64,000 nt of DNA, from contig CAVVPV010000028.1 in NCBI GenBank assembly GCA_963750185.1, forward strand, positions 57,435-121,434, read 5' to 3'. This DNA is from an uncultured Verrucomicrobiae bacterium (lineage in GTDB: Bacteria; Verrucomicrobiota; Verrucomicrobiia; Chthoniobacterales; JAFAMB01). Positions 6,655 through 64,000 of the stretch are shown piece after piece. The number at the start of each line of letters is the position of its first letter. The first letter of the stretch is position 1. Made by a program: the position numbers and the translations under genes. Under the pieces are notes generated by a model. That model searched no databases. It saw only the letters and a list, made by a program, of their open reading frames with translations, and had not been told where the DNA came from.

Positions 6655-6800
6655 AGGACGCCTTTTCCCCAGCCTTCACCAATCTTTCGATTGACTGGCA
6701 TCTGTGATGAAAATCACAGTGGAGAATTGTGACTCGATACCGCAGCGCTACTGTGACCGGTTCTCACGGTCTTCCATGAATCCACGGGTATTTGGGCCTG
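6655..6800 (-). promoter_or_regulatory. Probable cobalamin (B12) riboswitch in the leader of the bluB-cobT...cbiB operon
   Basis: The minus-strand RNA reads UGGAAGACCGUGAGAACCGGUCACAGUAGCGCUGCGGUAUCG. This aligns position-for-position with the E. coli btuB core GGGAAUCCAGUGCGAAUCUGGAGCUGACGCGCAGCGGUAAGG. A CCACUG element and a partial B12-box-like UGCCAGUCAAUC follow. A U-run lies downstream at 6606-6611. This is a by-eye alignment only. Confidence 0.6.
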
Positions 6801-6879
6801 TCAAAAAACTAAGACGCAGTCCACCACGAATTGCTTGGAGTGTCAACTCCCAGTTCATTATAGACAAGAAACGAACGAG

Positions 6880-30965: not shown

Positions 30966-33900
30966 TTAGCGATCTGAACTCTCGGGCGGGGAAAGATGAT
31001 AGGGCTTCCCTTCCTGGTAAAGCTTCAGCCGGATGTTCATTCCCGAAATTTCATTGGTGTCGGAAGAATCGATTAGCTTTAATGCCGCCTGCTGGTCGGC
31101 GATAGCTTGCGCGAAGTTTCCAGCCTCGGCATCAGCCGCCGCCAGCGTATCGAGATCTTCCCAGTACTGTCCTTCTGTTAGAATACAGGCCTGTTTAGCA
31201 TCCCGAACGGCCTGGGTCCCATTGCGCACTTCCGCAGACGGGCAGGTCGCCATGAGCCACGCCCTGCCGCTGTAATTGACCGGGTCCTTCTGGTTGAATT
31301 GAATCGCCGCACCATAAGCGTCGACAGCCTTACGGTAGTTGTCTTGCGCCTCCTGAGTCTTACCTTGGCGATAGAGAATGTAGCCAATCCTTGCGTAAGT
31401 GAGCGACAAATTGTGCCGCCAATCGGTACCGGGGGAATTCTTTTGCACGAACATCGAAAAGCTTTTCAGGGCTGATTGATATTGCCCCGCGGCAGGCTCT
31501 AAGTCGCCCAACATGGTCATGGCATCACCCAAATCTAGATAGCCTAAACCAAGCAAATTTTCCGAGAGAAGATTGCTTCCGTCGTGCTCGCTCAGCGCTT
31601 GGAAGGTGAGGCTTTGCTTGAAATTTTCGCGCGCACTCTCCCATTTGCCCTGGGCACGATAATAGTTCCCGAGGAAGACGTACCCAAAGGCTAACTCCCG
31701 TTGCAGGTCGGTATTGGCGGGGTTTTGTACTGCAAGATTTTTCTCCTTATCCAGTCCACTTGTCAGATAGAACAAGGCGCCGTTTTCGCCGTCGAGTTTA
31801 CCTTTCTGCAAGAGCAGGCGCCCCAGAGTGAGATAACTATAGAAGAGAGAGCGCTGCCAGTTCACATCGTCCTGATGTAATTGGGCATATTTACTTCGAA
31901 TTTGCTTCGCTTGTTCATACGCCTGTCGCGCCTCCTCAAAATGGCCGAGGATATTGTTCGCAATACCGATGCGGCTGTAGGCATTGGCCAGATCGAGTTG
32001 GTATCGTTCATTGTTTTTATCCTGACTGGCGAGCCTCTTCCGAAGATCGAGACTCTGCAGGTAGAAGTTGGTAATAGCCTCGTCTGGGCTGCCCTCCTGC
32101 CTAATAATATCTCCTTTTCGGCTGTAAATGTTGGCGAGTTGCTGGTCGACCCAGATTGCCTGGTCGCCTTCCTGCGATAGCGCGCCCACTTTCTTGGTGA
32201 TTTGCAGGCTCTCATCATAGAGGCGGGAGGCGTCCTCATATTTTCTCTCTAGGAACAGCGCATCGGCCTTACTACCTCCGCTCATAGGATTTGCCGGTCC
32301 GCTGAGTTGTTCGGCCAACTCGCGTTGGTATTTGATTCCGGGAATTCCCGGATTATTATCCGCTAGTTGGCGAGCGATAGAGATGCTTCGGTCATAGCAA
32401 TCCATGGCTTTGGGGAGATTTGCTTCGGCCTTTAGCACGTCTCCCAGGGTCCGGTAGACCGATTCCTGAAAATGGAGCTGGGTATTGCTCATCCCGCCTT
32501 CGTCGATTCTCTGCAGGTCAAGCATTTGCAAAGCTCTGTTGGCCGCTTTGTCCAGCAGCGAAACCCGCCCAAGGCCGCTGAGCTGATGTTGGAGGTCCGA
32601 GAGCATGAAGTCAATCAGATGATCTGCGCTGTCGTTGGAGTGTATGATCTTCTTCTTATAGGCAAAGGCCACCCTCCATTGCCAAATGCTGACCACCAGG
32701 CAGACAAGGGCCAAAAGACAGACGAACTTCAATTGCAGGTTCCGGCGTCGCGTGCTGCGCAATTCGCGATCCTTCGCACGAATCTCCGCATCTGCCTGCG
32801 CGGTCCGTGCTTTGGCTTCCAAGGCCGCTTCTTTGGCTTTTCTCTCGTCGCGGCTTTTCTTGATCACGTCGGTCAGGACATCGTGAGTCAATTCAACGCG
32901 TGGCATCCGGGCGCTGTCTTCGATCCGAATCAAGCGCCGGTCGATAAGTTTTGAAATAGCATCGTGTGAAACCCCCGGTATTGTCAGGGCATCTTGCAGG
33001 TCCACGCTGTTGCGGTAGCCGGAACCCGTGAGGAGCTTGTCCTCAATGAAGTACCGCAATCGCTCGTCGAATCCGCTCAGCGCGCGATCGTAAAAGCCGG
33101 TCAGTATGACCTCTTTGGACCCGGAAATGAGTTGGGGCGTTATTTTGGAATCCCAGCGAGCGATACGGGTGCTGTTTAATTCTCGGCAAAAAACGCTCAG
33201 TAACGTGGGCTCCACCTCGAGATTCGTCAACGGTACGTTCGCGAGCGCATCCCGTCCTGCAACGATCTTGACGATTTTCTCCCCGACTTCCTCGTCAACC
33301 AGCGCGCCGCCGGCATTAACGACGACTTCTAAGGCCTGCCCACCAGTCATCTTTTGAAGACGAAATCGGTTATGGGTGATCGAGGGGAGTTGATTGGAAA
33401 AACCTTCGAGGTTGGCCAGGAAATCTTCGCGAAGTGCAAAAACAACCTTGTAGTCATTTCTATAAAACGAAAATGTCTCCTCGCCGTCAGACTCCAATTG
33501 TATTTCGACGGCTTCGGGTGGACGGTTTTCGATTAGGTCTCCCAATTCCGTAAAAAGGGCGGTTATGCGCCGGTGGCATTTATCCCTGTTTGATCCCAGC
33601 GTAAAAATCTCTTCCAACTGGTCAAAAACGAGGACAGGTGTGATCACTCGCCCTTCTTGCGTCTTGAACTCATTGGTCGCACGATGAAAATAGGCCCAAA
33701 GGGTATCGCCCGGACGAATCAGCGGGGAGGAAATACGGGCCGTGGTGCCGGCATCACGAAGCGTTTCTTGCACCTGCGAGACTAAGTCCGGCGCCGCTTC
33801 GGCATAGTTCAACCGGACGTAAACTGGGAGGAAGTGTTCCCGACGCAACAAGGGAAAAATCCCCGCCTGCAGAAGGGATGTTTTGCCCAAGCCTGACAGC

Positions 33901-34118
33901 CCAAACATTATGGTCAACGTTTCACGCTTGATCAGCCGGAACAGCTCGGCTGCCTCCTTGTCGCGACCATGGAAAAAGGAGGCATTATCCTCGGTGAACG
34001 CGCTTAACCCCGGCCAAGGGTTCTCCTCGTTGACCTGTTTATCGTTCTTTTCGAGTGCCCTGGTATCAGTATGCATTCTCGAACCTTTCGACTTGGCCAT
34101 GAACCGTGCCGAGGACAC
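30966..34118 (-). CDS. nSTAND-type (STAND superfamily) P-loop NTPase with a central hydrophobic helix and C-terminal TPR array
   Basis: The N-terminus NPWPGLSAFTEDNASFFHGRDKE, then Walker A GLSGLGKTS (K79) and Walker B VLVFDQLEE, follow the pattern of nSTAND1-like NTPases. A basic coiled coil covers residues 420-460, and a hydrophobic helix LQLKFVCLLALVCLVVSIWQW spans nt 32676-32738. About 560 aa of TPR-like repeats follow. Alternative starts at 34100 and 34076 all overlap the upstream gene's stop at 34066. Confidence 0.8.
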   Translation of the reverse strand: MSSARFMAKSKGSRMHTDTRALEKNDKQVNEENPWPGLSAFTEDNASFFHGRDKEAAELFRLIKRETLTIMFGLSGLGKTSLLQAGIFPLLRREHFLPVYVRLNYAEAAPDLVSQVQETLRDAGTTARISSPLIRPGDTLWAYFHRATNEFKTQEGRVITPVLVFDQLEEIFTLGSNRDKCHRRITALFTELGDLIENRPPEAVEIQLESDGEETFSFYRNDYKVVFALREDFLANLEGFSNQLPSITHNRFRLQKMTGGQALEVVVNAGGALVDEEVGEKIVKIVAGRDALANVPLTNLEVEPTLLSVFCRELNSTRIARWDSKITPQLISGSKEVILTGFYDRALSGFDERLRYFIEDKLLTGSGYRNSVDLQDALTIPGVSHDAISKLIDRRLIRIEDSARMPRVELTHDVLTDVIKKSRDERKAKEAALEAKARTAQADAEIRAKDRELRSTRRRNLQLKFVCLLALVCLVVSIWQWRVAFAYKKKIIHSNDSADHLIDFMLSDLQHQLSGLGRVSLLDKAANRALQMLDLQRIDEGGMSNTQLHFQESVYRTLGDVLKAEANLPKAMDCYDRSISIARQLADNNPGIPGIKYQRELAEQLSGPANPMSGGSKADALFLERKYEDASRLYDESLQITKKVGALSQEGDQAIWVDQQLANIYSRKGDIIRQEGSPDEAITNFYLQSLDLRKRLASQDKNNERYQLDLANAYSRIGIANNILGHFEEARQAYEQAKQIRSKYAQLHQDDVNWQRSLFYSYLTLGRLLLQKGKLDGENGALFYLTSGLDKEKNLAVQNPANTDLQRELAFGYVFLGNYYRAQGKWESARENFKQSLTFQALSEHDGSNLLSENLLGLGYLDLGDAMTMLGDLEPAAGQYQSALKSFSMFVQKNSPGTDWRHNLSLTYARIGYILYRQGKTQEAQDNYRKAVDAYGAAIQFNQKDPVNYSGRAWLMATCPSAEVRNGTQAVRDAKQACILTEGQYWEDLDTLAAADAEAGNFAQAIADQQAALKLIDSSDTNEISGMNIRLKLYQEGKPYHLSPPESSDR

Positions 34119-35442
34119 TCTTAATCCAGTTCAAAAATTCAGCCGTCAGGTGACCTCCCGGAAAAATTTCGTAATGCTTGTTTCCGAACCGCAGCGGTAC
34201 CGCGGCATCATCAATCGGTATCGGAATCAAAAACAGTTCCTCGGCATTCATCCGGCGGGCCCGCTCTTCAGCGCACTTCCATTCCTCGTAGAAGACGCCT
34301 TCCCGACGGCGTTGCGTGTTGCGTGAGACTATTGGGAAAAAGAGAAAACAGCTGAGTATAGTTTGATGAATCTTCTCTGACCACTCTTCGCCGTGCCGAA
34401 TCCGGCTGCGGTCCAGCCAGACATTCAATCCGGCCGCTTCCAGGGATTCCGCAATTCGGAAAGCCGCGTCGAAATCCTCGCGGGCATAGCTCAAAAATAT
34501 GACCTCTTCTTCCGGGTCTGGCTTGATAGTTCGGAAAGAACTATCAACGGTCGCGTTGTCCTCTGCTGTATCGTCCGGATAGCGTTCCTGCCAGCGTTCG
34601 AGAAGTTGATCGACAAATTCAATCGGGCCGCTTTCAGTGTAAACCTCCGCCTGATTCCGGCCGAAGCTCTCGAGGAAGAAAATGAAATTCGAGTCCTTCC
34701 GCACCTGCTCGTCAGCCAGGTACTGCATCATGTAGCTGCTTCCAGCCGAAAATCGTTCTCCCCTGGCCAAGCGAACGAAAAATCGGGCAAGCCAGTCCGG
34801 AAAGCTATTTCCAATAAAAAGAAGATGATTATTTCTTAGTTCGTCGAAGAGTCGATTCGGTCGGCGTTCCTTCGATTGCAGCGATGAGATAAATTCCAGG
34901 GTATCCTCGTCCGTTACAGCATAGTCCGGAATAGCCGATACCTTGCCAAAGAGCCTGAAAACAAGAGGCTGTCTCAAATGATGATAATCGGTTGGCAGGT
35001 CCGACTCATCCCGCAATTGGTTTGGCACGTAGACCCGGCTGATTGTCCGCGGAGCGCCGGCGAAACGTTCTGCGTTCAGGGCTTGTTCGAGAAGAGAATC
35101 GAATGTGGTGCTGACAAAGAGCTTTAGCGGCTTTATTCGGGCGAGCTTTCTCAAAGGATCAGGGATGTCTATCGAGATTTTTTCCAGGATGGATCTAATT
35201 TTCCGGTAGATCGTCGAAGGCGGCTTCCCCGTTTTTAGATGTTTGCACACAACATCATTGATGTTGTAGTCACTTCGCAATGTCCCCGGATCAATTCCCA
35301 GTTCGGCTGCAAGCAAGGTAGCGATATGATGATAAAGAAGAACATCCCGGCCGCCGACTTGAATATTCAGAAGCTCGGGACCAAGGACGGGAACGACTCT
35401 CTCGTCCTTAATAAAATCGATCAGATCATCCCAGAATTCCAT
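34066..35442 (-). CDS. SIR2-like (SIR2_2-type) domain fused to a C-terminal TIR domain
   Basis: N-terminal blocks: VVPVLGPELL, LFVSTTFDSLLEQAL, VFRLFGKV, AVTDEDTLEF, LLFIGNSFPDWLARFF. By eye these align with the SIR2_2 motifs (G.G.S / TTNYD.LLE / KLHGS / T..DY / F.GYS..D). C-terminal residues 313-440 look like TIR: VIFLSYAREDFDAAFRIAESLEAAGLNVWLDRSRI..GEEW...FFPIVSRNT...FYEEWKCA. Confidence 0.75.
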   Translation of the reverse strand: MEFWDDLIDFIKDERVVPVLGPELLNIQVGGRDVLLYHHIATLLAAELGIDPGTLRSDYNINDVVCKHLKTGKPPSTIYRKIRSILEKISIDIPDPLRKLARIKPLKLFVSTTFDSLLEQALNAERFAGAPRTISRVYVPNQLRDESDLPTDYHHLRQPLVFRLFGKVSAIPDYAVTDEDTLEFISSLQSKERRPNRLFDELRNNHLLFIGNSFPDWLARFFVRLARGERFSAGSSYMMQYLADEQVRKDSNFIFFLESFGRNQAEVYTESGPIEFVDQLLERWQERYPDDTAEDNATVDSSFRTIKPDPEEEVIFLSYAREDFDAAFRIAESLEAAGLNVWLDRSRIRHGEEWSEKIHQTILSCFLFFPIVSRNTQRRREGVFYEEWKCAEERARRMNAEELFLIPIPIDDAAVPLRFGNKHYEIFPGGHLTAEFLNWIKSVLGTVHGQVERFENAY

Positions 35443-35901
35443 ACGGTCGGCCTAATTATGAGAACACGACATTTTGTTTAAGCATCGGCGAATTGCCGCC
35501 GATTACTGTCTCCGCTAAAGGTTAATACAGTTTTTTCCGTTTCCAGGTTTCGAAAATGGGAAGAAAGCTTTTCTTAAAGCTTCAAAAAGTGAAATTCAGT
35601 CAATCGCCAGACGCTCAGTCGTCGTTCTCGCATTGGCGGCGGACTAACCAAAGTGCCTCGTGCGAAACTATTGGAAAGGGTGCAGCCAACGAATCTTGAC
35701 TGACTCCAAGCAGCTCTGGACATGCGGATAATGCTTTCCGAGTGGCTTGCAACGGGCGAAGCTTTAACAAGTTTGTAAATTGCGAAATCTTGAGGCTAGC
35801 CTCAAAACTCCAGATCCGCCCCTGGCGGCAGATAGGCAGGAAGAGGAACCGAGATGAGATGGTTTTGCTCTGGTAGAAGAGGGTGAAGAAGGCTGCTTTT
35901 T

Positions 35902-36328
35902 TTGCCCGAATGTGGCAACAATTTCGGCATGCCACAGGTACAATTACCGATCTTTCCGGCAGGAGTCACGCACATCAATTCGGAGGTCGCCTTTGAGGGG
36001 CGGGATGGAAAGGTGTACTACTTTAATGGCCATCTGCCGGTGTTTGTCCATGAGAAGAGTGCTCTGGGGACTTTCCGGCTTTTTAGTACCCAATTGGTCA
36101 TCAATGGCAATGCGACTCAAGCGGAGATCTGATCCCGGATTACTGAGTGTGTTGGGTGAGCAGATTGTGCCACGGCTCAAAGCCGATGTGCCAAACCAGC
36201 CCACTGAAAAGCAACCGGAAGCAGACCCGCTCTTAAGCCGCTTTACCATCGTCTTCGACCGCGAAGGCTACTCGCCACGCTTCTTCGCCCAGATGAAAGA
36301 GGAGCGCATCGCGAGCCTTCGATTTTAG
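35902..36328 (+). pseudogene. Internally deleted, frameshifted fragment of the same transposase family as 20159-21432
   Basis: An N-terminal 75 aa (MPQVQLPIFPAGVTHINSEVAFEGRDGKVYYFNGHLPVFVHEKS...) ends in a stop. Another frame then gives GEQIVPRLKADVP...RFTIVFDREGYSPRFFAQMKEERIA. This matches RQSIVPRLLAEAP...RFTLIFDREGYSPDFFAELKAQRIA of the 20-kb copy. Confidence 0.7.
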
Positions 36329-36393
36329 CCGTGAATCAGTCCGTTACGCGGTCGGGCTTGAAACGGACTGACAGAAACTTCGGGAGATAGTCA

Positions 36394-36427
36394 GCGGTCG
36401 GCTTATGCCCGACCGCAGTAATTTTTT
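36394..36427 (+). terminator. Putative intrinsic terminator (plus-strand sense)
   Basis: An 8-bp GC stem gcggtcgg/ccgaccgc (36394-36401 / 36409-36416) is followed by aattttttg (T-run at 36422-36427). Confidence 0.45.
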
Positions 36428-36446
36428 GTCACCGCTGCCGTGGCAT

Positions 36447-37241
36447 CTACTTGGTCTCCATTTCCTGGTCCCACGGTTTTGCCAGCTGGTGGAGGAGCGC
36501 TTTGGCCTGTAATGGCGGCAATTGTGGAAAAACTGAAAGGATTCGTGCGAGTAGCGCCGTCACGTGAGGGGCGGCGAAACTGCTACCTGAGGTCGATTTT
36601 CGCCTTCTGTTGCGCCACGGAACATCGACTTTTTCGCCATTCGCCACAAACTCCACAAGCGCCCCCGGTCGATAATACAACTCTTCCGAGTGAAGCTGGC
36701 GAAAGTCGACGGTAATCACCGAAGCAAAGGACCCCGGCCACTCCGGTTGACGAAAATCTACATTGCTGCAAGCGGCAACGATGTGGGTCCCTTTAAGGTA
36801 CGCTTCGTCCACCCAGCTCTTATATCGAAGGATATGATCCGGCAAGCCACACCCAAAACTGCAATTCAGTATTTCGTAGTTGCGCGCCAACGCTTGGCGC
36901 GCGCCTTCGCGCACTATATCGGTCTTCGACATGTTAAATGCATCTAAGATGCGGAAACTGCCGATTTCAGCCTCGGGTGCCAGGCGATGAATGATTCCGG
37001 CGATGGCTGTACCGTGGCCAAATACGTCCGTATTTTCCCCCTGCTTGACCTCAGGTTGCACTCCGGACTCTGCGATCTGTAGATCGTCTGCGGACTTGAG
37101 CCCGGCCAGGTCTGGATGATCGAACTCGATGCCGCTGTCGAGAACCGCTATGCGCACGCCTTTGCCGGAGCCGTGCAGCATCGCTTGCCGGGCTCTATCC
37201 AGGTCGATCCACATGGGTGTCGAATCTAAGCTGCGTTCCAT
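36447..37241 (-). CDS. Subtilisin-like S8 serine peptidase, no signal peptide or prodomain
   Basis: 264 aa. Catalytic triad contexts: AVLDSGIEFDHPDL (Asp), FGHGTAIAGII (His), TSGSSFAAPHVTA (Ser). It overlaps the upstream GAF gene by 16 nt. Confidence 0.88.
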   Translation of the reverse strand: MERSLDSTPMWIDLDRARQAMLHGSGKGVRIAVLDSGIEFDHPDLAGLKSADDLQIAESGVQPEVKQGENTDVFGHGTAIAGIIHRLAPEAEIGSFRILDAFNMSKTDIVREGARQALARNYEILNCSFGCGLPDHILRYKSWVDEAYLKGTHIVAACSNVDFRQPEWPGSFASVITVDFRQLHSEELYYRPGALVEFVANGEKVDVPWRNRRRKSTSGSSFAAPHVTALLARILSVFPQLPPLQAKALLHQLAKPWDQEMETK

Positions 37242-37834
37242 CCCAACGCCTCGCGCAACATTTGGAAGTCGATGAGATCGCGCATGATCGATGCGCCGTC
37301 CTTCAATGCGAGCAAGTCCTTTCGAGCGAAGCCGGGAGGAATAGGTCCGACCGGGACGGCTTGCCCTGCCGCAAGGTAAGCGTCGATCAGCTGTACGCAG
37401 GTAATGACACCTCGCCGCTGATTGAGAAAATAGAACGGAACTACGATCATCGCATAGGTTGTTTGATTTAGCAGGCGATTGAGTTCATGATCGTGCTCGA
37501 CGTTCTTGTAGACTTCGTTTTCGACCAGGCCCTGCTCAGTCGCGAATGTTGCGCTAACGAGACCCTTGGAAAGCGATTGCGCGAAGCCGATTACCTTCTG
37601 TGCGTTTGGACCGCTATTATAAGCAATGACCAGATTCTTTTTTTCTGTGTCCAGAAGCCAGATGCTGCCTTCCGCTGCGCCGACGGCGCCAAAGGTCCGT
37701 TCCAGAAACCGAAAAATGATAGGATCGCAGAAATCCACGAAGTTTCGGTGATCGATCAGTCGGGCCATTTTTGCCAGTTGGTCCTGCAGCGCTGGTTTTA
37801 GATCAAGAAAAACTTCGCTTGGAATAAAATTCAT
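37226..37834 (-). CDS. GAF-domain protein
   Basis: 202 aa with a GAF-like pattern: GAAEGSIWLLDTEKKNLVIAYNSGPNA...GLVSATF...VVPFYFLNQRRGVITCVQLID. Confidence 0.7.
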   Translation of the reverse strand: MNFIPSEVFLDLKPALQDQLAKMARLIDHRNFVDFCDPIIFRFLERTFGAVGAAEGSIWLLDTEKKNLVIAYNSGPNAQKVIGFAQSLSKGLVSATFATEQGLVENEVYKNVEHDHELNRLLNQTTYAMIVVPFYFLNQRRGVITCVQLIDAYLAAGQAVPVGPIPPGFARKDLLALKDGASIMRDLIDFQMLREALGWNAA

Positions 37835-37908
37835 GGTGGTATATCAAAAAACAAGCGCACGGCTTCCTTTCCGCGCGCTTGAACGATAGATGGATGCTGG
37901 TTGCCCTA

Positions 37909-38085
37909 CTATATGTAGTTCACGGCTTGGCAGTTCCAACAGACAAAATAGTTCCAGGAGTCCGGCGCGTAATTTACTAAGTGGCAGTTCCAGCAAATGT
38001 AGTTGCTACGCCCTCCGGCTTCTGCTTCCTTCTTGGCAACGCCGCCTTCTTTATCTGGTTTCTTTCCCGTTTTTTCTTCTGGCAT
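37909..38085 (-). CDS. Small zinc-ribbon-like protein (58 aa), below the ORF-track cutoff
   Basis: My translation is MPEEKTGKKPDKEGGVAKKEAEAGGRSNYICWNCHLVNYAPDSWNYFVCWNCQAVNYI. It has two CWNC knuckles 16 residues apart inside a duplicated NY..CWNC..VNY unit. A Shine-Dalgarno-like gaaaggaaagtt precedes the ATG. The ORF lies 74 nt upstream of the GAF gene on the same strand. Confidence 0.5.
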   Translation of the reverse strand: MPEEKTGKKPDKEGGVAKKEAEAGGRSNYICWNCHLVNYAPDSWNYFVCWNCQAVNYI

Positions 38086-38258
38086 AACTTTCCTTTCGTT
38101 CTGTTTTGGGTTTGAACCGGAGCAAATCCGGCATACAGACTTTCATTTAAAGGACGAAGATTATTTGAGATTTTGCATGAAAATTTTACCGGCGAGCGGT
38201 CGCGCGATTAGGTTCAAGGTACTTTGTTGCGATTAAAATGGGCCGCCGGCAAGGCGGC

Positions 38259-38320
38259 GTAGGCGAAGCGTCCCCGCTTTGCTTCTTCCCGAGAGTGCAA
38301 AGCGAGGACGCTTCGCCTAC
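38259..38320. repeat. 62-bp palindromic element, family GTAGGCGAAGCGTCCCCGCTTTGC (copy 1)
   Basis: gtaggcgaagcgtccccgctttgc - 14 nt - gcaaagcgaggacgcttcgcctac. Intergenic. Confidence 0.9.
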
Positions 38321-38492
38321 ATCGCATGGCCGTCGGCCAATTTTCATCGCAACCCTCTGGGCCGGAGCCAGTTGGCTGTTTTTCTGCGTTGCTCTCTCGA
38401 CCCGTATCAGTAAGATATGGGTCTTCGTTCGCGCCTTGAAAAAACAGCCAACTGACTTCGGGCAAAGTACCTCCTATTTCGGGGACAGGACA

Positions 38493-38978
38493 CTAGAGTT
38501 CGTATCTGACAGGCTTCGTCTCACGCGGGACGTAGAGAGGGTGGTATGGATAGCCGGCTTTCGTTCTTTTAAGACAATACAAATCAATTTGCGATAGGAT
38601 CTTTAATACGCGCGTGCATCGATCCTGATGGCGACCAAGAGTCCCCCATGCTGCGATCACCAGTTCAGTGTCGCAGACCGCTTGGAGGATGCACCGATCA
38701 TTCTCCGGTCCGACCGGATCCGGCTCTGTGTAAAGCCGGGTCGGGTCGGTCGAGACCAGCGCAAACAGGTTGGTCATGATGAATCCGTTGCATCCCCAGG
38801 CAGTGGAAAACTCGCGGATGCGCCGAAGCGTGGGGTCGAGCCGGGTCTCATCGGCAACACTGGGATTTAGCCCTATCCATGTACATAGCATTGGGGCAAA
38901 TAGAGATTCCCAGGTATGCTTGAGCAAATATCGGTACCTGCGATCAGGACTAAAAACAGAGTCGTTCTGCATCACCAA
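38493..38978 (-). CDS. DUF1643 family protein
   Basis: 161 aa. The blocks RYRYLLKHTW...WIGLNPSVADETRLDPTLRRI...GFIMTNLFA...VIAAWG...HPLY match my memory of the DUF1643 pattern. Confidence 0.7.
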   Translation of the reverse strand: MVMQNDSVFSPDRRYRYLLKHTWESLFAPMLCTWIGLNPSVADETRLDPTLRRIREFSTAWGCNGFIMTNLFALVSTDPTRLYTEPDPVGPENDRCILQAVCDTELVIAAWGTLGRHQDRCTRVLKILSQIDLYCLKRTKAGYPYHPLYVPRETKPVRYEL

Positions 38979-39001
38979 GCCTTCTACTGTTCTGCGCCCC
39001 G

Positions 39002-39403
39002 TTACTGTATAAGGCTTTGAAGGAACTCTCGGCGCTCGTTGATGAGTCGGATGAGGTTAGAATGCACATCCTCCATCAGCGCGCTGCCGCCGACTGCACC
39101 ATCGCTGTATGCTCGCATCACGGCTTCTGCGTCGCGCCACTTTATCCAAGCACGTTCGGCCCCAACCAATGCATTTTTGAAGTTACTGGCGCCGGGCTCT
39201 CCTGCTTTGATACGACCGTCCAGGATAGCGAGGATCCTTTGATAATCGAGATCGAGATCGGCATTCGCTTCTTCAATTCGCTTGTTCTGAACTCTCAGGT
39301 CGTCATTCTCTGAAGCGTTGCTTTGAGCGGCGCTCATGCAAATGCCTACCGCCGCTAGGACAGCGATGAGGCGCATCAGTCTGATAGCTTCATAGTCCAA
39401 CAT
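39002..39403 (-). CDS. DUF1311 / LprI-like (lysozyme-inhibitor family) secreted protein
   Basis: Signal peptide MRLIAVLAAVGICMSAAQS. DUF1311-type helices are present (LDLDYQRILAIL...AERAWIKWRDAEA...GGSA...LINERREFL). It overlaps the upstream SLT-like gene by 14 nt. Confidence 0.65.
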   Translation of the reverse strand: MLDYEAIRLMRLIAVLAAVGICMSAAQSNASENDDLRVQNKRIEEANADLDLDYQRILAILDGRIKAGEPGASNFKNALVGAERAWIKWRDAEAVMRAYSDGAVGGSALMEDVHSNLIRLINERREFLQSLIQ

Positions 39404-40298
39404 TTTTCTTCGTCAATGCTACGATTTGGTCCAATTTGTGCCCGGCTCTGAGCGTCGACCAATACCTTGCCGCTCCACGAAATTTGCCGCTAGCGCTGTT
39501 TGCGACCGTTTTGTCTCGCTCGACAAGTGTGGCAAAGATTATCACGGCGCACCTAAGGTTCACCAGTGGGTCATCCAAGCTCCCCGCCGCTTGGCTGAGA
39601 GGCTCCAGTTTGTAGCTCTCTTGATCCTGGTAGCTGAGTTGTAAAAGTCCTATAGAGTCCACGCCGAGAGGAGGCGGTTCGTGGTAAACATCACGCGGAT
39701 TCCAGCTCGACTCAAATTTGGCGACTGCGATGAGCAGCTCGGCCCAGAACTTGATACGAAGAGCAGGTGACAGCGTGCTGTAGCCGTCAATGAACGCATT
39801 GGGATTGCCAAGCTCTAGCTGGGCGATGCGGTCTGTGACAGAGGCGATAAGCTGAGCAGACCAAGCTTTTCGCAGTAGCACGGTATCCCAACTCAGGTTA
39901 GTTGGTTTGAGCGGATCGCCCGCATCCGGTTTCGGAGCCTCGACTAACCTGGCGACGGCGAGAGAAGTGTCGCTCCCTTTGATTGAGACAATAGGACAAT
40001 AAAGGATGACAGACTGGCCGTTGTCTGCCATCTGCTTGACGAAGCCGGCGCTTTTTGCGGAGTCGACCGAGTAGGTGTCGCCGGTTTGCGCAAATAGGCC
40101 GTTGGGTGTCGGAACAAGTCGAATATCTTGTAGCTTCTCAGTACGGGGTTGAAAGGAGGCTAAATTCACCGGCACTCCAGCCTTCGTACCTTTGCTTAGA
40201 TCAACTAGCTCAGATCCTGCATCTTCCTGGCTTTGTATGCCGGTGTGAAGATCTTCTAATGAGATGGTTAGAGGTGCATCGAGTATCTTTAAGGCCAT
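39390..40298 (-). CDS. Protein with a C-terminal SLT-like lytic transglycosylase/lysozyme-like domain and an unknown N-terminal domain
   Basis: 302 aa. AVAKFESSWNPRDV...VDSIGLLQLSY resembles the SLT catalytic E-S and GLMQ motifs. No signal peptide is visible. Confidence 0.6.
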   Translation of the reverse strand: MALKILDAPLTISLEDLHTGIQSQEDAGSELVDLSKGTKAGVPVNLASFQPRTEKLQDIRLVPTPNGLFAQTGDTYSVDSAKSAGFVKQMADNGQSVILYCPIVSIKGSDTSLAVARLVEAPKPDAGDPLKPTNLSWDTVLLRKAWSAQLIASVTDRIAQLELGNPNAFIDGYSTLSPALRIKFWAELLIAVAKFESSWNPRDVYHEPPPLGVDSIGLLQLSYQDQESYKLEPLSQAAGSLDDPLVNLRCAVIIFATLVERDKTVANSASGKFRGAARYWSTLRAGHKLDQIVALTKKNVGL

Positions 40299-40367
40299 GT
40301 GATTCTTCCTCTCTTCGAGCCGAAACTCGTGCTTGCTTGGGTTTTGGTTGAATACTTTCTTTGGCTG

Positions 40368-41561
40368 TCAAATGGTGCCGGCCGTATCGGGAACATCTTT
40401 TGGCGTACAAATTGGTACGGAGCTCAGAGCGGGTGAGAGAAGCGCGCCGTTTGTACTCGGAACACTTTTTGGGGTGGAAATCGGTACAGAGGTAATTGCG
40501 GGCGGTAATTTAGACGCGCCATTTCCCTGCGACAATGCCGGTTTCTGATCGACGACGGTGACCGTGGCTTTATTGCTGTCCTCCGAATCGACAGTGACTG
40601 CAATTGCCGTCTGTCCCACGGAAAACGGCGGAGCGGACACCGTCAGTACGATCGAAGTGTCGCTCCAACTCTTGACGACCACGGGTTGATCCGGGGCGAT
40701 TCCCTGCAATGTTATGACACTGCCAAGTTGAGTGGCACCGAAGGAGCTCCCGGTAAGAGCTACGTCGGCACCGATCGACACGTACGTCGGAGTCACCTTC
40801 GAAATCGTAGGCGTGGTCGTAACAATAAGTTTCTTGCCAAGATAGGCGCCATGGCCCAATCCCATCAACACCATCAGAGCAGGATCGATATCTGGCAGAC
40901 TCTTGAAATTATAGATGTCATGAATAGTCCTTGCGACACTTGCGAGATAAGCGCCGATCGCAATGATCGTCCAGCCAATCACCTGGATCTTGGTCAAATC
41001 AATCGCTCCACTGTCATCTTTAACGAGATCACCGGATCGCGCATCGTCCGGGTTAATATGGTCCTTCGTACCCGTTCCGTTGTTCAGTTGGTTAACGGTA
41101 ATGCCCTTAGCCGCTACTGCCGAAGCAATGCTGAAGCCCATCGCAAGGAGCAAATTGCCGGGTATATCAGGTCCAGGAGAAACGGCATTTCCGGTGCCTA
41201 TCCGCGCGGCGTACAGGCTCGCGTACGCGAAGAGTGCGGTGAGCGTCCATAAAAAGAATTGAAACTTTGAAGTGCTCAAGCGGTTATCAGCACCTCGTAT
41301 AATCTCCAGTGCGTTCCAACTCCCGGCCAGAAAGCGATAAAACGCCCACAACAGCAACAAAACTGCGATCCCTACGAGAAACGAAGAGCTTCGGCACAGC
41401 GTAAGAATCGACTGTGAAAGCGACCACACGCAAGCCCCTAGCGCCTTTTGCTGCCAAAAAAATACAACCGTCAGGATCACGAGCAACCAGAACACGTACT
41501 TTGCTACGGAGTTCCCGTTAGCCGAGATCTTGGCGAACCGCCTTTTAATCTGATCATTCAT
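40368..41561 (-). CDS. Polytopic membrane protein with a C-terminal IPT/TIG-like domain
   Basis: 397 aa with several hydrophobic helices. It then has TPTISKVTPTYVSIGADVALTGSSFG...VVVKSWSDTSIVLTVSA (IPT/TIG-like beta sandwich). The tail is an 18-aa duplication (ITSVPISTPKSVPSTNGA / LSSVPICTPKDVPDTAGT). Confidence 0.6.
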   Translation of the reverse strand: MNDQIKRRFAKISANGNSVAKYVFWLLVILTVVFFWQQKALGACVWSLSQSILTLCRSSSFLVGIAVLLLLWAFYRFLAGSWNALEIIRGADNRLSTSKFQFFLWTLTALFAYASLYAARIGTGNAVSPGPDIPGNLLLAMGFSIASAVAAKGITVNQLNNGTGTKDHINPDDARSGDLVKDDSGAIDLTKIQVIGWTIIAIGAYLASVARTIHDIYNFKSLPDIDPALMVLMGLGHGAYLGKKLIVTTTPTISKVTPTYVSIGADVALTGSSFGATQLGSVITLQGIAPDQPVVVKSWSDTSIVLTVSAPPFSVGQTAIAVTVDSEDSNKATVTVVDQKPALSQGNGASKLPPAITSVPISTPKSVPSTNGALLSPALSSVPICTPKDVPDTAGTI

Positions 41562-47294: not shown

Positions 47295-47414
47295 GGGACC
47301 TCCCATCATAGAGAACGCTCCTGGCAAAACAATCTTCAAATTTTTGAATGGTTGTTTAACGGGTGGCAGGCCCGTGAATGACCCGTTAAAGGCGCGGTAT
47401 CTCGGCATCAAAAT

Positions 47415-47477
47415 GTAGGCGAACCGTCTCGGTTTGCTGGCCTTTCGAGAGGTGCAAAGCGGGGACGCTTCGCCTAC
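47415..47477. repeat. Palindromic element, same family as 38259-38320 (copy 2)
   Basis: gtaggcgaaccgtctcggtttgc - 15 nt - tgcaaagcggggacgcttcgcctac. It lies in the divergent promoter region between the SBP gene and nagB. Confidence 0.9.
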
Positions 47478-47540
47478 TCTCGTGCAGACAACAAATCGAC
47501 TCTGTGTAATCGTTTCTAGCATCGATTTAACCCCCTCCAC

Positions 47541-55374: not shown

Positions 55375-55420
55375 AAATCTGTCAAAACTGCCTGTTCAGC
55401 AAGCCAAACACCAAAACCCA

Positions 55421-55483
55421 GTAGGCGAAGCGTCCCCGCTTTGCACCTCTTCAAAGGCGCGCAAACCGAGACGGTTCGCCTAC
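55421..55483. repeat. Palindromic element, same family as 38259-38320 (copy 3, opposite orientation to copy 2)
   Basis: gtaggcgaagcgtccccgctttgca - 15 nt - gcaaaccgagacggttcgcctac. Confidence 0.9.
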
Positions 55484-55536
55484 ATTTTGACGCCTCCGCG
55501 AGCAACCGGACTCACGTGTGTCACTTTACCGAAATT

Positions 55537-61697: not shown

Positions 61698-62089
61698 TTA
61701 GCTAGAGCCTGTTGCGAAATAGCTGCAAGCCGCGTCCCGTAGGGACACACCGATTGTAGCCTGGCACGCAGTGCCTGGGAAGCGTGTCTAGAAAGAAGCC
61801 GTCCCGTAGGGTACGGTATGATCGGGCGGGACGGCTCGTTTAGGGCGCGCTGTACCAGGCACTTCGTGCCAGGCTACGATCATGCAGTCCCTCCGGGACA
61901 TTTGGCCGGTAGCTCTCACGCCGCCACATGCCCACGGCACCGCGCTAATCACATATCAGACCGTATCCCTAGACCTGCGGGGCGGCGACTCTTCGGGCAT
62001 GCATTCCAGGAGTTCGTACCGGGTTACCATCGTTCACCACCCGGCGTCTCTTTCGATCTCCGGCACATTTCGCAACAGGCTCTAGCTAA
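61698..62089. mobile_element. MITE-like non-coding element bounded by perfect 23-bp terminal inverted repeats
   Basis: ttagctagagcctgttgcgaaat (61698-61720) is the exact reverse complement of atttcgcaacaggctctagctaa (62067-62089). The interior holds inverted copies of tagcctggcacg(c/a)agtgcctgg and gtcccgtagggac-type hairpins. No coding capacity is evident. Confidence 0.6.
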
Positions 62090-64000
62090 ACGATTTTCCG
62101 GAGCCTGAATCCCGATTTTTCAATCAGCGGCCCCAGATTTCTGACCGTGTCGCGGTCCTTTTCTTTCTCGGGTTCCGACAATTGCGTCCACGGAACGAGC
62201 AGGGGATGATGCTTACGGGAATTGTCTCTCGAAGGTGCAAAGGTCCAGCCGTTTTGACGGCGCTCGTCCATCCAGCGGTCATGCTCGCGGATGGCGAGGT
62301 CTTCGATCTCGTGTGCGGCGAGCTGGAGCTTTGAAGGGCTAAGTCCGTGACTTGGCGAGAGCTCGTAGCCGAGCCGGTTTAACTTGTTAGGAATGTCAGC
62401 GGCTTGAGCGCGATTAGCGTCCTTGACGTCTTCTGATAATTCTTCCCAGGGCCGCAGCGCGCTGTTATTCGCCGGCGTCTTCCCTGCGGCTTGGGCTTTC
62501 GCACAATAAAACGAGTGGATCGCCTTTGCTAGCTCTTCGATATCCAAAGAACGTTTAGGGATGATGCGATAAATGCGATATTGGCCTGGGAAATCTTTTG
62601 CCAATTTCATGCTGCCGGCATATTCGCAGATGAAGCGTGATTCCTGCTGACTTTGGCCGCTGTTGATTCGCCGCTGGATTTCCGAACCTAATTCGGCCAT
62701 GGCCGCAAACTCTTCGCTCGCATAGACCTCTCCCGGTCTGGTTACCGGCTCGATCCTTGCCGCACGACTGACGTGTGCGCCGGTGAAACCAAGTTGGCGA
62801 ACAACAGGATTATAGTGCATGAATACCGGGCCGCTATGGAGTCCGATCCGAATGTTAAGCGGTGTCTGGACTTTTTCGCCGTCACCCGGGGAAGGTGCCT
62901 CGTAATAAAGACCGCGGCTTATCCAAGTTTCTTCGCCCTCTTTGATCAACTTTGTTAATTCGAGAGCAAAGCAGCCTGCGTCGTGCGCAAGGTCGAACAC
63001 CGCGTACACAGCGTCTCCCCAAGTACTGACGCTTATCGGCGCGTGTTTACTGGAAGCGAGCAATTGAGAGACTTGCTCCAGGAATACCCCTACAAATTCA
63101 GGAATTACCTTCTCGGTTAGTTTGCTGTATCCAACGATATCTGCGAATAACATGCTCTTCACTTCCTGGTGAAGTGTGGCTCGCTCGCTTCGGTTCTTTA
63201 GAGGCCGGAAATAGGTTACGGGATCCGGTGCCTCGGGCATTCGGACGATGATCGGTTCCTGTTTCAGCTCATGTCTCCAAAAGTGGACAAACGAAGCGGT
63301 CCCGCCTTCTCCGGCGCCAGGCAAGCCGTCCCAAAGCACCATTGGTTGAACATCCAATCGGGAAGCTCGCGCCGTATGGAGCGCGAGACCGGCGGTTACT
63401 TCGAGGGCAAATTGCCAGCTGACATCGCTCCCCGGCTCATACAGTTGACCGATTTCACGGACGGTTGCCGCATCGCGAATAGCCTGGTCGAACAGGGGAG
63501 TCCAAATCGCTGGACCATGCTCCGGCTCAAATTGAGTGACGCTAGTTTGGCGAAACTCGGCCTTGGACCACGGAAGCACAACGTGAACTTCTGCCCCGCG
63601 CTCTCGCAGTGCTTCAATGAAAAGAAGATCAGCACCGGCAGCTGCGTTTACGAGGCCCACTCGCACGTCCGCATCAATGACTTGCGCGCTCAAACGCTTA
63701 CGGACCAGATCGAGTATTTCAATTGGGAAACGGCCTCTTTGTCCGGGTGGATCCGGCAAATGCCCGGAAAAAACAACCAGCTGTAGCGGGGGAAAGGCTG
63801 ACTTAAAGAAGCTTCGTGGTTGACCGACCGCTTCTGCCAAAAATTGAGCGTCGTACCTGGCACCGGCCAGATCTGCGACCTTGACGCCATGCAGCCCTGC
63901 CATGTCGTGATAATTGGCAAAGGCAATGTCCAGCTCACCGAGGATGGTATGCGCGATCGCGCGAGCGTGCACGACAGCAACTCCAGGACCCTCGTCCTGT
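62086..64000 (-). CDS. Multidomain signalling protein: unassigned Rossmann-like N-terminal domain + class III nucleotidyl cyclase + RyR-domain repeats (5' end outside window)
   Basis: Cyclase blocks: SMLFADIVGYSKL, TWGDAVYAVF, RIGLHSGPV, FTGAHVSRAARIE. C-terminal RyR-like blocks: LAKAIHSFY...PWEELSEDVKDANRAQAADIPNKL and IREHDRWMDERRQNGWTF...HPLLVPWTQLSEPEKEKDRDTVRNL. The frame upstream of the track's GTG (63972) stays open to base 63999, so the gene is probably 5'-truncated by the window. Confidence 0.75.
   Translation of the reverse strand, partial: QDEGPGVAVVHARAIAHTILGELDIAFANYHDMAGLHGVKVADLAGARYDAQFLAEAVGQPRSFFKSAFPPLQLVVFSGHLPDPPGQRGRFPIEILDLVRKRLSAQVIDADVRVGLVNAAAGADLLFIEALRERGAEVHVVLPWSKAEFRQTSVTQFEPEHGPAIWTPLFDQAIRDAATVREIGQLYEPGSDVSWQFALEVTAGLALHTARASRLDVQPMVLWDGLPGAGEGGTASFVHFWRHELKQEPIIVRMPEAPDPVTYFRPLKNRSERATLHQEVKSMLFADIVGYSKLTEKVIPEFVGVFLEQVSQLLASSKHAPISVSTWGDAVYAVFDLAHDAGCFALELTKLIKEGEETWISRGLYYEAPSPGDGEKVQTPLNIRIGLHSGPVFMHYNPVVRQLGFTGAHVSRAARIEPVTRPGEVYASEEFAAMAELGSEIQRRINSGQSQQESRFICEYAGSMKLAKDFPGQYRIYRIIPKRSLDIEELAKAIHSFYCAKAQAAGKTPANNSALRPWEELSEDVKDANRAQAADIPNKLNRLGYELSPSHGLSPSKLQLAAHEIEDLAIREHDRWMDERRQNGWTFAPSRDNSRKHHPLLVPWTQLSEPEKEKDRDTVRNLGPLIEKSGFRLRKIV

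Follow-up and report, generated by a model that had tools for sequence, protein, structure and literature searches.

Typical secreted S8 (subtilisin-like) proteases carry a signal peptide and an I9-type prodomain. Site-1 cleavage of anti-sigma factors is, in the known cases, the work of enzymes from other families that reside in the membrane or periplasm. The ietAS pair, which contains an S8 domain, is reportedly a defense pair, an assignment said to come from PADLOC and Gao et al. QhpE removes a leader of ∼28 residues from the small Cys-containing protein QhpC, which is exported by the efflux-type ABC protein QhpF (PMC7876137). PopC from Myxococcus xanthus is a signal-less subtilisin-like protease that co-encoded PopD keeps in check until a physiological signal releases it (PMC6434023). 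The earlier note on this DNA knew of no described system that combines a GAF protein, an S8 protease, and a small protein, and no published description was found in the literature searched.

The window (the whole 64,000-nucleotide stretch of DNA that was analyzed) contains three such genes, which are real and part of an uncharacterized gene set. They lie among the following features.

35912..36328, plus strand: transposase fragment (Transposase_29, E = 9.4e-19, profile positions 192–257 of 562)
36394..36416, no strand assigned: G+C-rich hairpin, 30 nt after the S8 stop, with a T-run on the plus-strand side only
36447–37241, minus strand: S8 subtilase, 264 aa (ORF positions, Pfam, motifs)
37226–37834, minus strand: stand-alone GAF-fold protein, 202 aa, partner of the S8 protease (AF2 and Foldseek)
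37845..37881, minus strand: hairpin resembling an intrinsic terminator (37881..37852; G+C-rich stem of 11 bp, 8 of them G-C) and T6, between the micro-protein and GAF genes
37909–38085, minus strand: micro-protein, 58 aa, with two CWNC knuckles (conserved ORF)
38116..38132, minus strand: small 5'-UTR hairpin GCCGGATTTGCTCCGGT, upstream of the micro-protein gene (read from sequence)
38153..38177, minus strand: promoter-like TGCAAA-N15-CGTC of ECF-sigma type, 67 nt upstream of the micro-protein ATG
38226..38353, no strand assigned: palindromic repeat element, 128 nt with 57-nt arms, the upstream boundary

The S8 protein matches the Pfam family Peptidase_S8 (PF00082) with E = 1.5e-25 and 90.6 bits, against a cut-off of 21.8. 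The intact catalytic triad that the earlier note had described consists of D35 (DSGI), H76 (HGT), and S221 (GSSFAAP), with the oxyanion residue N160 in AACSN; all three catalytic motif strings are kept in 111 of 120 homologues. Residues 8–254 align to residues 4–249 of subtilisin, which is the mature domain only, end to end. The catalytic Asp is at residue 35 in the window protein (median 33, maximum 40 in the 120 homologues), and a hydrophobic N-terminal stretch is absent from all of these sequences. The protein therefore has no signal peptide or prodomain, as had been proposed, and departs from the architecture of the typical secreted form. The same holds for its orthologues: none of the 120 has a cryptic secretion signal, and the family is of cytoplasmic type. 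The best NCBIfam match is QhpE (NF049966), but the score of 84.5 bits is under the equivalog cut-off of 165 and no member of the qhp operon context (QhpA, B, C, D, or G) is found among the neighboring genes, so an identity as QhpE proper was rejected.

The GAF assignment of the 202-aa protein turned out to be correct at the level of fold, though the window sequence has no Pfam or NCBIfam match even at E ≤ 10. Among its 196 homologues (E ≤ 0.001), which are ∼207 aa long in the 120 listed, many have weak matches to GAF_2; the L005 homologue, for example, scores 25.8 bits, below the cut-off of 28.6. The GAF fold is a six-stranded antiparallel sheet flanked by helices. The AF2 model (pLDDT 88.4, pTM 0.85) gave 257 Foldseek matches in the PDB at E ≤ 0.001 (best E = 3.5e-8, probability 1.0), and most of the 50 listed are annotated GAF domains or GAF-containing proteins, which confirms the predicted fold. 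These matches include Lcd1, CyaB2, and PDE2/5/6/10, among them cAMP- and cGMP-binding GAF domains. Compared with L009, the gene has 17 synonymous and 5 non-synonymous codon changes, a ratio that points to purifying selection. A cyclic-nucleotide ligand, raised previously, is plausible to the extent that a cyclase is co-encoded in 31 of the 67 GAF–S8 loci. Against it, the cyclic-nucleotide signature NKFDE (NK-x(5,24)-F-x3-DE) is absent from every one of the 120 homologues listed, and for this reason the link to the cyclase remains circumstantial.

The two genes overlap by 16 nt (37226–37241), the S8 start lying inside the end of the GAF gene. The same overlap recurs in L001, L004, and L005, and a similar short overlap is usual elsewhere, which suggests that translation of the two proteins may be coupled. 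The adjacency proposed in the earlier note is kept in other genomes: the S8 gene lies directly 3' of the GAF gene in 64 of 65 informative Verrucomicrobiota loci (those with room for it). Among the collections searched, the gene set is almost confined to this phylum. The usual context comprises an ECF sigma factor, a 77-aa anti-sigma-like protein, GAF, S8, a CobW-like protein (CobW_C/ZigA-like, 35 of 67 loci), and the TPR-cyclase. Most GAF–S8 loci have the sigma factor and the 77-aa protein and no micro-protein. In other genomes, the operon is stable and vertically conserved beside a tRNA, not in defense islands. The GAF protein and an S8 protease lacking both prodomain and signal peptide thus form the invariant core of a modular system, of which the window holds a trimmed copy.

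The trimming is visible at both ends of the unit. The DNA is 94% identical to its closest relatives, L008 and L009, up to position 38214, where both relatives have an ABC exporter and the window has the palindromic repeat (further copies at 47404–47485 and 55420–55503, and in L007). Rfam returned only sub-threshold miRNA-hairpin matches to this repeat across 35400–39100. At the other end, the hairpin at 36394..36416 marks the end of the unit, and the transposase fragment forms the downstream boundary at the place where L001–L004 and L010 carry an ABC exporter directly after S8. No homologue or pseudogene of the ABC exporter, the sigma factor, the 77-aa protein, or DUF4190 is present in the window. 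The exporter gene was either lost here or never present, and with the exporter, sigma, and 77-aa genes absent, local function in the window may differ or be decaying.

The micro-protein gene lies upstream of the GAF gene, separated from it by 74 nt (37835–37908); its position, like those of the other ORFs, the 16-nt overlap, and this gap, is exactly as first reported. Both CWNC knuckles are present (C31/C34 and C49/C52), as is the Shine-Dalgarno-like sequence, AAAGGAAAG, 2 nt ahead of the ATG. The protein divides into a Lys/Glu/Gly-rich "leader" (residues 1–26, ending in EAGGR) and a 32-aa CWNC...CWNC domain. In the AF2 model, residues 1–22 are disordered and residues 26–57 form four strands (pLDDT 85–91). 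Foldseek neighbors of this model are all zinc-ribbon-like, none of them significant (E ≥ 0.76), and Pfam matches are below threshold; the domain is thus predicted to be zinc-ribbon-like without statistical support. Distant members of the family, which has at least 55 clusters at 50% identity, carry classic CPxCG...CxxCG zinc-ribbon knuckles, and many members have CxxD in place of CxxC in one knuckle.

The micro-protein is conserved as a protein, with 91–64% identity to its relatives, many synonymous differences, and residues 14–26 invariant. Codon differences number 10 against L009 (5 synonymous, 5 non-synonymous) and 33 against L002 (12 and 21, respectively). These changes are concentrated in the core, the leader being conserved and the core fast-evolving, and the share of synonymous changes is lower than in GAF (17 to 5). 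A conserved leader with a variable core is typical of exported peptides. The commonest neighbor of micro-protein genes in the recovered loci is an ABC exporter, beside which they often occur as tandem paralogues (L078, L079, L080, L062, and L036). Micro-protein and ABC genes have repeatedly been recruited beside GAF–S8 in varied order (L001–4, L008–10, L036, L046, and L062); the L036 array combines the sigma factor, the 77-aa protein, GAF, S8, and ABC genes with four micro-protein paralogues. The micro-protein is not an obligatory third member of the system. It is lineage-restricted, being found in 6 of 67 GAF–S8 genome loci, and occurs in L007, L078, and L080 with no GAF–S8 pair nearby.

The micro-protein and 77-aa families share the motif [ED]-V-x-G-[RH]. 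The strict form is found in 60 of 65 members of the 77-aa family and in 32 of 56 micro-family representatives (44 of 56 with a looser pattern), compared with 0.95% of the 50–120-aa ORFs in the same loci. Few positions of the 77-aa family are as well conserved as V19 and G21, which are invariant, and R22, which is nearly so. In micro-family proteins, 4–10 residues separate the motif from the first knuckle, which puts it precisely where the disordered part gives way to the folded one. Furthermore, both genes take the same slot directly upstream of GAF, occupied by the micro-protein in the window, L001–3, and L046 and by the 77-aa protein in L005 and others. The 77-aa protein is a putative soluble anti-sigma factor, identified from its gene position and one weak match (E = 0.0011); the family profile gave no significant match to the PDB. 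The last motif residue (R or H) covaries with S8 pocket residues at 15 discriminating alignment columns, one of which adjoins the oxyanion Asn. All five loci with an "H" motif belong to one Prosthecobacter clade, and this lead was dropped as confounded by phylogeny.

The promoter-like TGCAAA-N15-CGTC is the sole exact match in the window (0.43 expected) and is not significant individually. Its half-sites and 15-nt spacing (TGCAAR-N15-CGTC) are kept, with a diverged spacer, at the micro-protein genes of L001–4, L008–10, and L050. The motif also occurs upstream of the second GAF–S8 pair in L046 and, in about 25 sigma-type operons, 11–12 nt ahead of the closing gene, which encodes a ∼96-aa DUF4190 protein. 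These operons themselves follow the tRNA and a TTGACG −35 box, and a search ahead of the sigma genes for a copy of the motif that would indicate autoregulation found none. S8, GAF, cyclase, and Verrucomicrobia all go unmentioned in the main text of the paper that reclassified ECF sigma factors (PMC7826278). Transcription of the micro-protein gene probably starts at this predicted promoter. The small 5'-UTR hairpin is conserved in L007, L008, and L009 and replaced by a different hairpin in L002.

The three genes and their order stand as described in the earlier note, but the proposed three-gene operon is interrupted by the terminator-like hairpin between the micro-protein and GAF genes (−24.8 kcal/mol, z = −2.3). 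A hairpin follows the micro-protein genes of L002, L004, L008, and L009 as well, with a compensatory change in L004 (CGG/CCG to CGA/TCG). The stem ends 17 nt before the GAF ATG, which leaves no room for a promoter. The element is a probable attenuator or leaky terminator.

The system looks like one of regulated protein processing or signaling, not phage defense. We tentatively favor a reading, to which we give somewhat less than an even chance, in which small proteins bearing the motif are processed by a cytoplasmic subtilase under GAF control; in the window, this would remove the micro-protein leader, much as QhpE trims QhpC ahead of its export by QhpF. S8 would be a site-specific cytoplasmic processing protease, and GAF would control its activity or substrate access via some ligand or by binding the substrate leader. 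The substrates would be the small proteins with [ED]-V-x-G-[RH] that are encoded beside the pair. In most genomes, the 77-aa anti-sigma-like protein would be cleaved and the ECF sigma factor thereby switched. In the window lineage, a cut at or near EAGGR (residue 26) would take the disordered leader off the zinc-ribbon-like domain, and in relatives the leaderless domain would then probably be exported by the adjacent ABC exporter. Transcription would begin at the ECF-type promoter upstream of the micro-protein gene, and the hairpin would pass only part of the transcripts into GAF–S8, yielding much substrate and little enzyme.

Of the roles that had been suggested for the micro-protein, that of candidate substrate gains support because the motif is common to the small proteins beside GAF–S8. 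The window motif counts against the substrate model, since EAGGR is a loose variant with Ala in place of Val. Five Verrucomicrobiaceae GAF–S8 loci (L063, L065–L067, and L071) have no motif-bearing ORF nearby. As there are also micro-protein genes away from GAF–S8, the model needs action in trans. The motif could alternatively be a binding site for GAF, for the sigma factor, or for the exporter. A more ambitious version, which we consider rather unlikely, is a self-contained circuit in which a GAF-gated, prodomain-less cytoplasmic subtilase, cutting at a short [ED]-V-x-G-[RH] tag, both inactivates a minimal soluble anti-sigma factor, so that the ECF sigma factor is switched on, and matures a diversifying family of leader-bearing zinc-ribbon mini-proteins for ABC export; the mini-proteins would in turn be transcribed from the promoter of that sigma factor. 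If true, this would be an undescribed signaling route widespread in Verrucomicrobiota, serving as a peptide-signaling or competition circuit.

The rival that survives best, although we doubt it, is that GAF–S8 acts only on the ECF sigma/anti-sigma switch (here outside the window), the micro-protein being an unprocessed, ABC-exported, co-regulated neighbor. GAF would then be mainly a trans-acting foldase or inhibitor that replaces the prodomain, not a ligand sensor. The occurrence of micro-protein and ABC genes together away from GAF–S8 (L078 and L080), the predominance of loci with sigma factor and 77-aa protein but no micro-protein, and the hairpin that parts the micro-protein gene from GAF all fit this proposal. 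A foldase or inhibitor role is also consistent with the missing S8 prodomain and with the 16 nt that the S8 gene shares with its partner, which hint at coupled translation, and has a precedent in the Myxococcus PopC/PopD pair, in which a signal-less subtilase is held by a co-encoded partner (PMC6434023). It does not sit well with two unrelated small-protein families sharing [ED]VxG[RH] directly upstream of GAF, with the repeated recruitment of micro-protein and ABC genes beside GAF–S8 in varied orders, or with a hairpin–GAF interval too short to hold a promoter for GAF itself.

Less probable again is that the micro-protein is an intracellular zinc-binding regulator that is not exported (a sigma-, RNA-polymerase- or nucleic-acid-binder, or a zinc-status sensor tied to the CobW-like protein), its abundance being set by GAF–S8 proteolysis. 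The CPxCG...CxxCG knuckles of distant members, the zinc ribbons among the AF2 core's non-significant Foldseek neighbors, the CobW_C/ZigA-like protein in 35 of 67 loci, and the missing exporter in the window speak for such a role. The consistent ABC pairing, the tandem fast-diverging paralogues, the conserved leader with a variable core, the CxxD knuckle in many members, and the lack of any DNA- or RNA-binding family match speak against it.

The anti-phage or programmed-death module of the earlier note, with a ligand-gated cytoplasmic subtilase as toxic effector, is very improbable: PADLOC, run on the three proteins and six neighbors, gave generic S8-domain matches only ("subtilase," 1.3e-20; none for GAF or the micro-protein) and thus no defense system, and the pair forms a stable sigma/anti-sigma/cyclase operon by a tRNA in 64 other genomes, not a variable island. 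Matches to IetS are weak and partial (the best covers residues 20–83, E = 3.8e-9; two very weak ones cover residues 214–256, E ∼5e-3), and neither an IetA ATPase nor another system partner is found in the unit; membership in ietAS was rejected for want of a full-length IetS and an adjacent IetA. In the window, the genes do have two defense-like neighbors, a SIR2-TIR protein and an nSTAND1-TPR NTPase, and remnants of mobile elements are close by, but the defense-like neighbors lie beyond the transposase fragment and are not conserved. The result corrects a defense reading that was based only on a signal-less S8 protease near defense-like genes.

If the processing model is true, it would add a new form of ECF sigma control, by a soluble subtilase with a sensor partner and not by membrane or periplasmic site-1/site-2 proteases, as well as a new class of leader-tagged exported mini-proteins. 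Verrucomicrobiota are a soil phylum whose regulation is almost unstudied experimentally. Because the [ED]VxG[RH] motif is shared, a few purified proteins would be enough to test the idea directly, and the system may yield a sequence-specific intracellular protease and tag pair.

The system resembles several described ones in part. The likeness to regulated anti-sigma proteolysis (DegS/RseP, PrsW, Prc/CtpA, and similar) is one of gene position: in most relatives, the pair comes immediately after the genes for an ECF sigma factor and a small anti-sigma-like protein, which suggests protease-triggered sigma release. The window itself, by contrast, has no sigma or anti-sigma gene, and the literature searched describes no soluble S8 protease that works with a GAF partner on a soluble anti-sigma factor of 77 aa. 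The likeness to PopC is one of description. PopC, at 50.8 kDa, has additional N-terminal sequence and is itself a secreted protein, and nothing in the literature searched identifies PopD as a GAF protein. IetS shares an S8 domain without a secretion signal, but its models are 750–800 aa long compared with 264 aa for the window protease. With LanP/NisP-type and other RiPP or bacteriocin S8 peptidases, the relatives share an S8 protease, an ABC exporter, and a small putative precursor in which a conserved leader precedes a variable core containing Cys; the relatives also have tandem paralogues. The hairpin that follows the precursor gene could set the precursor:enzyme stoichiometry. They differ in having no modification enzyme in the neighborhood, a cytoplasmic protease without a prodomain, a charged, Gly-rich leader with an [ED]VxG[RH] junction, and a core that resembles a folded zinc ribbon. 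Compared with the Qhp system, the window lacks QhpA, QhpB, QhpD (radical SAM), QhpG, and an ABC gene, the putative substrate is a mini-protein with two CxxC knuckles, and a GAF partner is present. QhpE, the best NCBIfam match of the window S8 protein, is itself a minimal cytoplasmic subtilisin-like protease without signal peptide or prodomain, and the QhpC leader, at ∼28 residues, compares with 26 in the micro-protein.

The three-gene unit on the minus strand is one lineage-specific, here truncated, configuration of a larger modular system. All three open reading frames (ORFs) are intact; their coordinates agree with those claimed in the earlier note, and the sequence features it described for them are present. 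The GAF and S8 ORFs overlap by 16 nt, the micro gene is spaced 74 nt from the GAF gene, and AAAGGAAAG is read immediately 5′ of the micro ATG.

Features of the unit and its borders
37909-38085, minus: micro ORF, 58 aa, intact
37226-37834, minus: GAF ORF, 202 aa, intact
36447-37241, minus: S8 ORF, 264 aa, intact
37881..37852, minus: terminator-like hairpin between micro gene and GAF, 11 bp with 8 G-C pairs, then T6
38177..38153, minus: promoter-like motif TGCAAA-N15-CGTC, 67 nt upstream of the micro ATG
38226-38353, also 47404-47485 and 55420-55503, and 3652-3735 in the related locus L007: palindromic repeat element, ~84-128 nt, 57-nt arms, 86% complementary
35912-36328, plus: Transposase_29 fragment, profile positions 192-257 of 562 matched

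Pfam identifies the 264-aa protein as a subtilase (S8, E = 1.5e-25), and the catalytic and oxyanion residues D35, H76, N160 and S221 are in place. Its alignment to subtilisin runs end to end over the mature catalytic domain; the protein therefore has neither a signal peptide nor a prodomain. The earlier description of an intact triad in a protein lacking both thus holds for the window, and their absence extends to 120 homologues, none of which has a hydrophobic N-terminus and whose catalytic Asp has a median position of residue 33. The best curated match is QhpE; membership of that family was rejected, since the score of 84.5 bits falls short of the 165 cut-off and qhp genes are absent. The 202-aa protein gave no Pfam or NCBIfam match whatever the threshold. 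It was correctly called GAF, because many of its homologues (196 at E ≤ 0.001; ~207 aa among the 120 listed) have weak GAF_2 matches, its AlphaFold model, with 27 homologues as input, is confident (pLDDT 88.4), and Foldseek groups that model with GAF domains of Lcd1, CyaB2 and PDE2/5/6/10 (lowest E 3.5e-8). None of 120 GAF homologues has the NKFDE signature that marks GAFs binding cyclic nucleotides.

Direct homologues of the micro-protein, which has two CWNC knuckles, are few (four clusters, 91-66% identity). They do not vary in residues 14-26 or in the Cys/Trp scaffold, and the synonymous share of differing codons is substantial: 5 of 10 against the related locus L009 (5 non-synonymous) and 12 of 33 against L002 (21 non-synonymous, clustered between the conserved Cys/Trp positions). 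The GAF gene differs from that of L009 by 17 synonymous and 5 non-synonymous changes. Conservation of the micro-ORF as an amino-acid sequence is borne out by these comparisons, and the gene is real. Exported peptides typically combine a conserved leader with a core that evolves fast. When 1.84 billion representative sequences were searched with a profile, 55 micro-family proteins scored E ≤ 0.001, and 52 of these are 41-160 aa long. The small members share the start M-[AP]-[ED]-E-K-x-G-K-K-P, followed by a stretch rich in Gly and acidic residues, the junction [ED]-V-x-G-[RH] and a ~32-aa domain with two CxxC knuckles; in more distant members near GAF-S8 the knuckles read CPHCG...CGNCG. AF2 models residues 1-22 as disordered and residues 26-57 as four strands (pLDDT 85-91), and the Foldseek neighbours are zinc ribbons, 0 of them significant. 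Many members (proteins P0247-P0250, P0282 and P0285, and those of loci L078-L080) have Asp for the second Cys of one knuckle, either one (CWNDG or CWRDG), which suggests either that a metal is bound by Cys3-Asp or that these proteins have no metal site.

Scanning one genome per species with the GAF profile gave 68 loci spread over Chthoniobacterales, Methylacidiphilales and Verrucomicrobiaceae; 67 come from assemblies labelled Verrucomicrobiota or member lineages, the sole exception being a 3-kb contig in an assembly labelled Nitrospirales. The GAF-S8 adjacency, which the earlier note had proposed to check, is strongly conserved: of the 65 loci whose flanking DNA is long enough, 64 have S8 directly 3′ of GAF, and L001, L004 and L005 show the 16-nt overlap as well. 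The dominant order is tRNA, ECF sigma, 77-aa ORF, GAF, S8, CobW_C/ZigA-like, TPR-S + class III cyclase and a ~96-aa DUF4190 membrane protein. Within a few kb of GAF (n = 67 loci), the anti-sigma-like 77-aa family occurs in 57, an ECF sigma factor in 51, a CobW-like protein in 35, a cyclase in 31, and an ABC exporter and the micro family in 6 each.

Several further observations concern these operons. The "CobW" neighbour (L005 6518-7729 and homologues) has matches confined to CobW_C and to residues 143-363, the C-terminal half, of ZigA; because its N-terminal GTPase half is unrecognised, it may be a degenerate COG0523 protein, and a zinc link to the putative zinc-ribbon micro-proteins is conceivable. 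The system is prone to paralogous expansion: L046 (8001-9379, 13259-14628) carries two GAF-S8 pairs, each with an ABC gene nearby, and L050 (5705-7050) has three tandem 77-aa paralogues behind a single sigma gene. In the window, a 628-aa ORF (62086-63972, minus) 24 kb from the pair shares 39% identity with the TPR-S + class III cyclase closing the sigma-type operons of relatives.

The suggestion of a phage-defence role is not supported. PADLOC recognises only a generic S8 domain in the window protease, with partial and weak IetS matches and IetA absent, and the usual context of the pair in relatives is signalling, not defence. Downstream SIR2-TIR and nSTAND1-TPR genes are cut off from the unit by the transposase fragment and are not conserved neighbours of GAF-S8. 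The SIR2_2+TIR_2 protein (34066-35442, 458 aa) and the nSTAND1 NTPase with TPR repeats (30966-34118, 1050 aa), both on the minus strand, overlap by 53 nt and look like a two-gene STAND/TIR-SIR2 defence-type pair, for which PADLOC gave partial TIR and ThsA-like matches only.

The micro gene proved a joined but not obligatory third member. It accompanies GAF-S8 in the window lineage, stands alone in L007, and follows an ABC exporter, sometimes in tandem, with no GAF-S8 nearby in L078, L079 and L080. The order is micro, GAF, S8, ABC in L001-3; GAF, S8, ABC, micro in L004 and L010; and ABC, micro, GAF in L008 and L009, which are 94% identical to the window in DNA. L036 unites sigma, 77-aa protein, GAF, S8, ABC and four micro paralogues in a single array. 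A called 54-aa ORF 5′ of the micro gene (L002 1567-1731, also L001 and L003) has no family match and no counterpart in the window; its three carriers encode the same GAF protein (P0002) and do not represent independent conservation, and a 54-aa call in L006 is instead the cut 3′ end of a sigma gene. Neither a homologue nor a remnant of the ABC gene is present in the window. The place of the ABC gene in L001-4 is occupied by the Transposase_29 fragment, which is apparently frameshifted with an overlapping ORF (35902-36132) and looks like an IS remnant. On the other side, homology to L008/L009 stops at 38214, beside a 128-nt palindromic repeat (38226-38353) that marks the upstream breakpoint of the locus. 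This probably REP- or MITE-like element has at least three copies in the window, one of which matches a metagenome contig at 100% identity over 84 nt; Rfam yielded nothing beyond spurious sub-threshold miRNA-hairpin matches. Upstream on the same strand (38493-41561) lie genes for DUF1643 (161 aa), an LprI-like lysozyme-inhibitor-domain protein, an SLT-like transglycosylase and a TIG-domain membrane protein, which are not conserved beside GAF-S8 elsewhere.

The hairpin stem ends only 17 nt before the GAF ATG, too close for a promoter to fit in between. The hairpin accompanies the micro gene in relatives, even where that gene is the last of its array (L004), and shows a compensatory change there (CGG/CCG to CGA/TCG). 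We infer a leaky terminator that would make micro mRNA abundant and GAF-S8 mRNA scarce. ECF-type promoters have AAC-like −35 and CGT-like −10 elements, which TGCAAA-N15-CGTC resembles. A single match in the window alone is not significant; the half-sites and spacing are kept 5′ of micro genes in L001-4, L008-10 and L050, with a diverging spacer, and TGCAAR-N15-CGTC precedes the second GAF-S8 pair of L046. This likeness and recurrence suggest that the micro-GAF-S8 unit is part of this sigma family's regulon; the window itself has no sigma gene. In ~25 sigma-type operons the DUF4190 gene (L012 13692, L021 13407, L040 12692 and others) has the motif 11-12 nt ahead of its ATG, implying a leaderless or near-leaderless mRNA; the gene, encoding a conserved ~96-aa protein with two TM segments, is likely a direct target of the sigma factor. 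Ahead of the sigma/77-aa/GAF/S8 operon of Chthoniobacterales (L021, L024, L040 and L058, ~6760-6840) no ECF-type motif copy was found, which suggests constitutive rather than autoregulated expression; a TTGACG −35-like box and an apparent tRNA gene, recognised by eye, also lie 5′ of it.

The 77-aa and micro families are otherwise dissimilar, yet both are encoded immediately upstream of GAF and share the motif [ED]V.G[RH]. It occurs in 60 of 65 members of the 77-aa family, ~20 residues from the N-terminus and among the best-conserved positions (V19 and G21 invariant, R22 nearly so), and at the leader/core junction of the micro family (strict form in 32 and looser form in 44 of 56 representatives; EAGGR in the window). 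The strict form has a background of 0.95% among all 50-120-aa ORFs in these loci. Most simply, the motif would be a site that GAF-S8 recognises or cleaves in both families. S8 would then cleave the small proteins as directed by the motif, GAF would gate S8, and the micro-protein would be exported, a combined scheme that we put forward tentatively and think somewhat more apt to fail than to hold. Of the module first proposed, the part that fits the data is an intracellular protease that has GAF as partner and, as its likely substrate, the micro-protein; defence does not fit. In keeping with the earlier note, the literature searched held no description of a GAF + S8 system with ECF or zinc-ribbon partners. 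QhpE is a cytoplasmic subtilisin that cuts a 28-residue leader off the small Cys-containing QhpC before its export via the ABC transporter QhpF (PMC7876137), and the 26-residue putative leader, S8 protease and ABC exporter of the present system form a close parallel.
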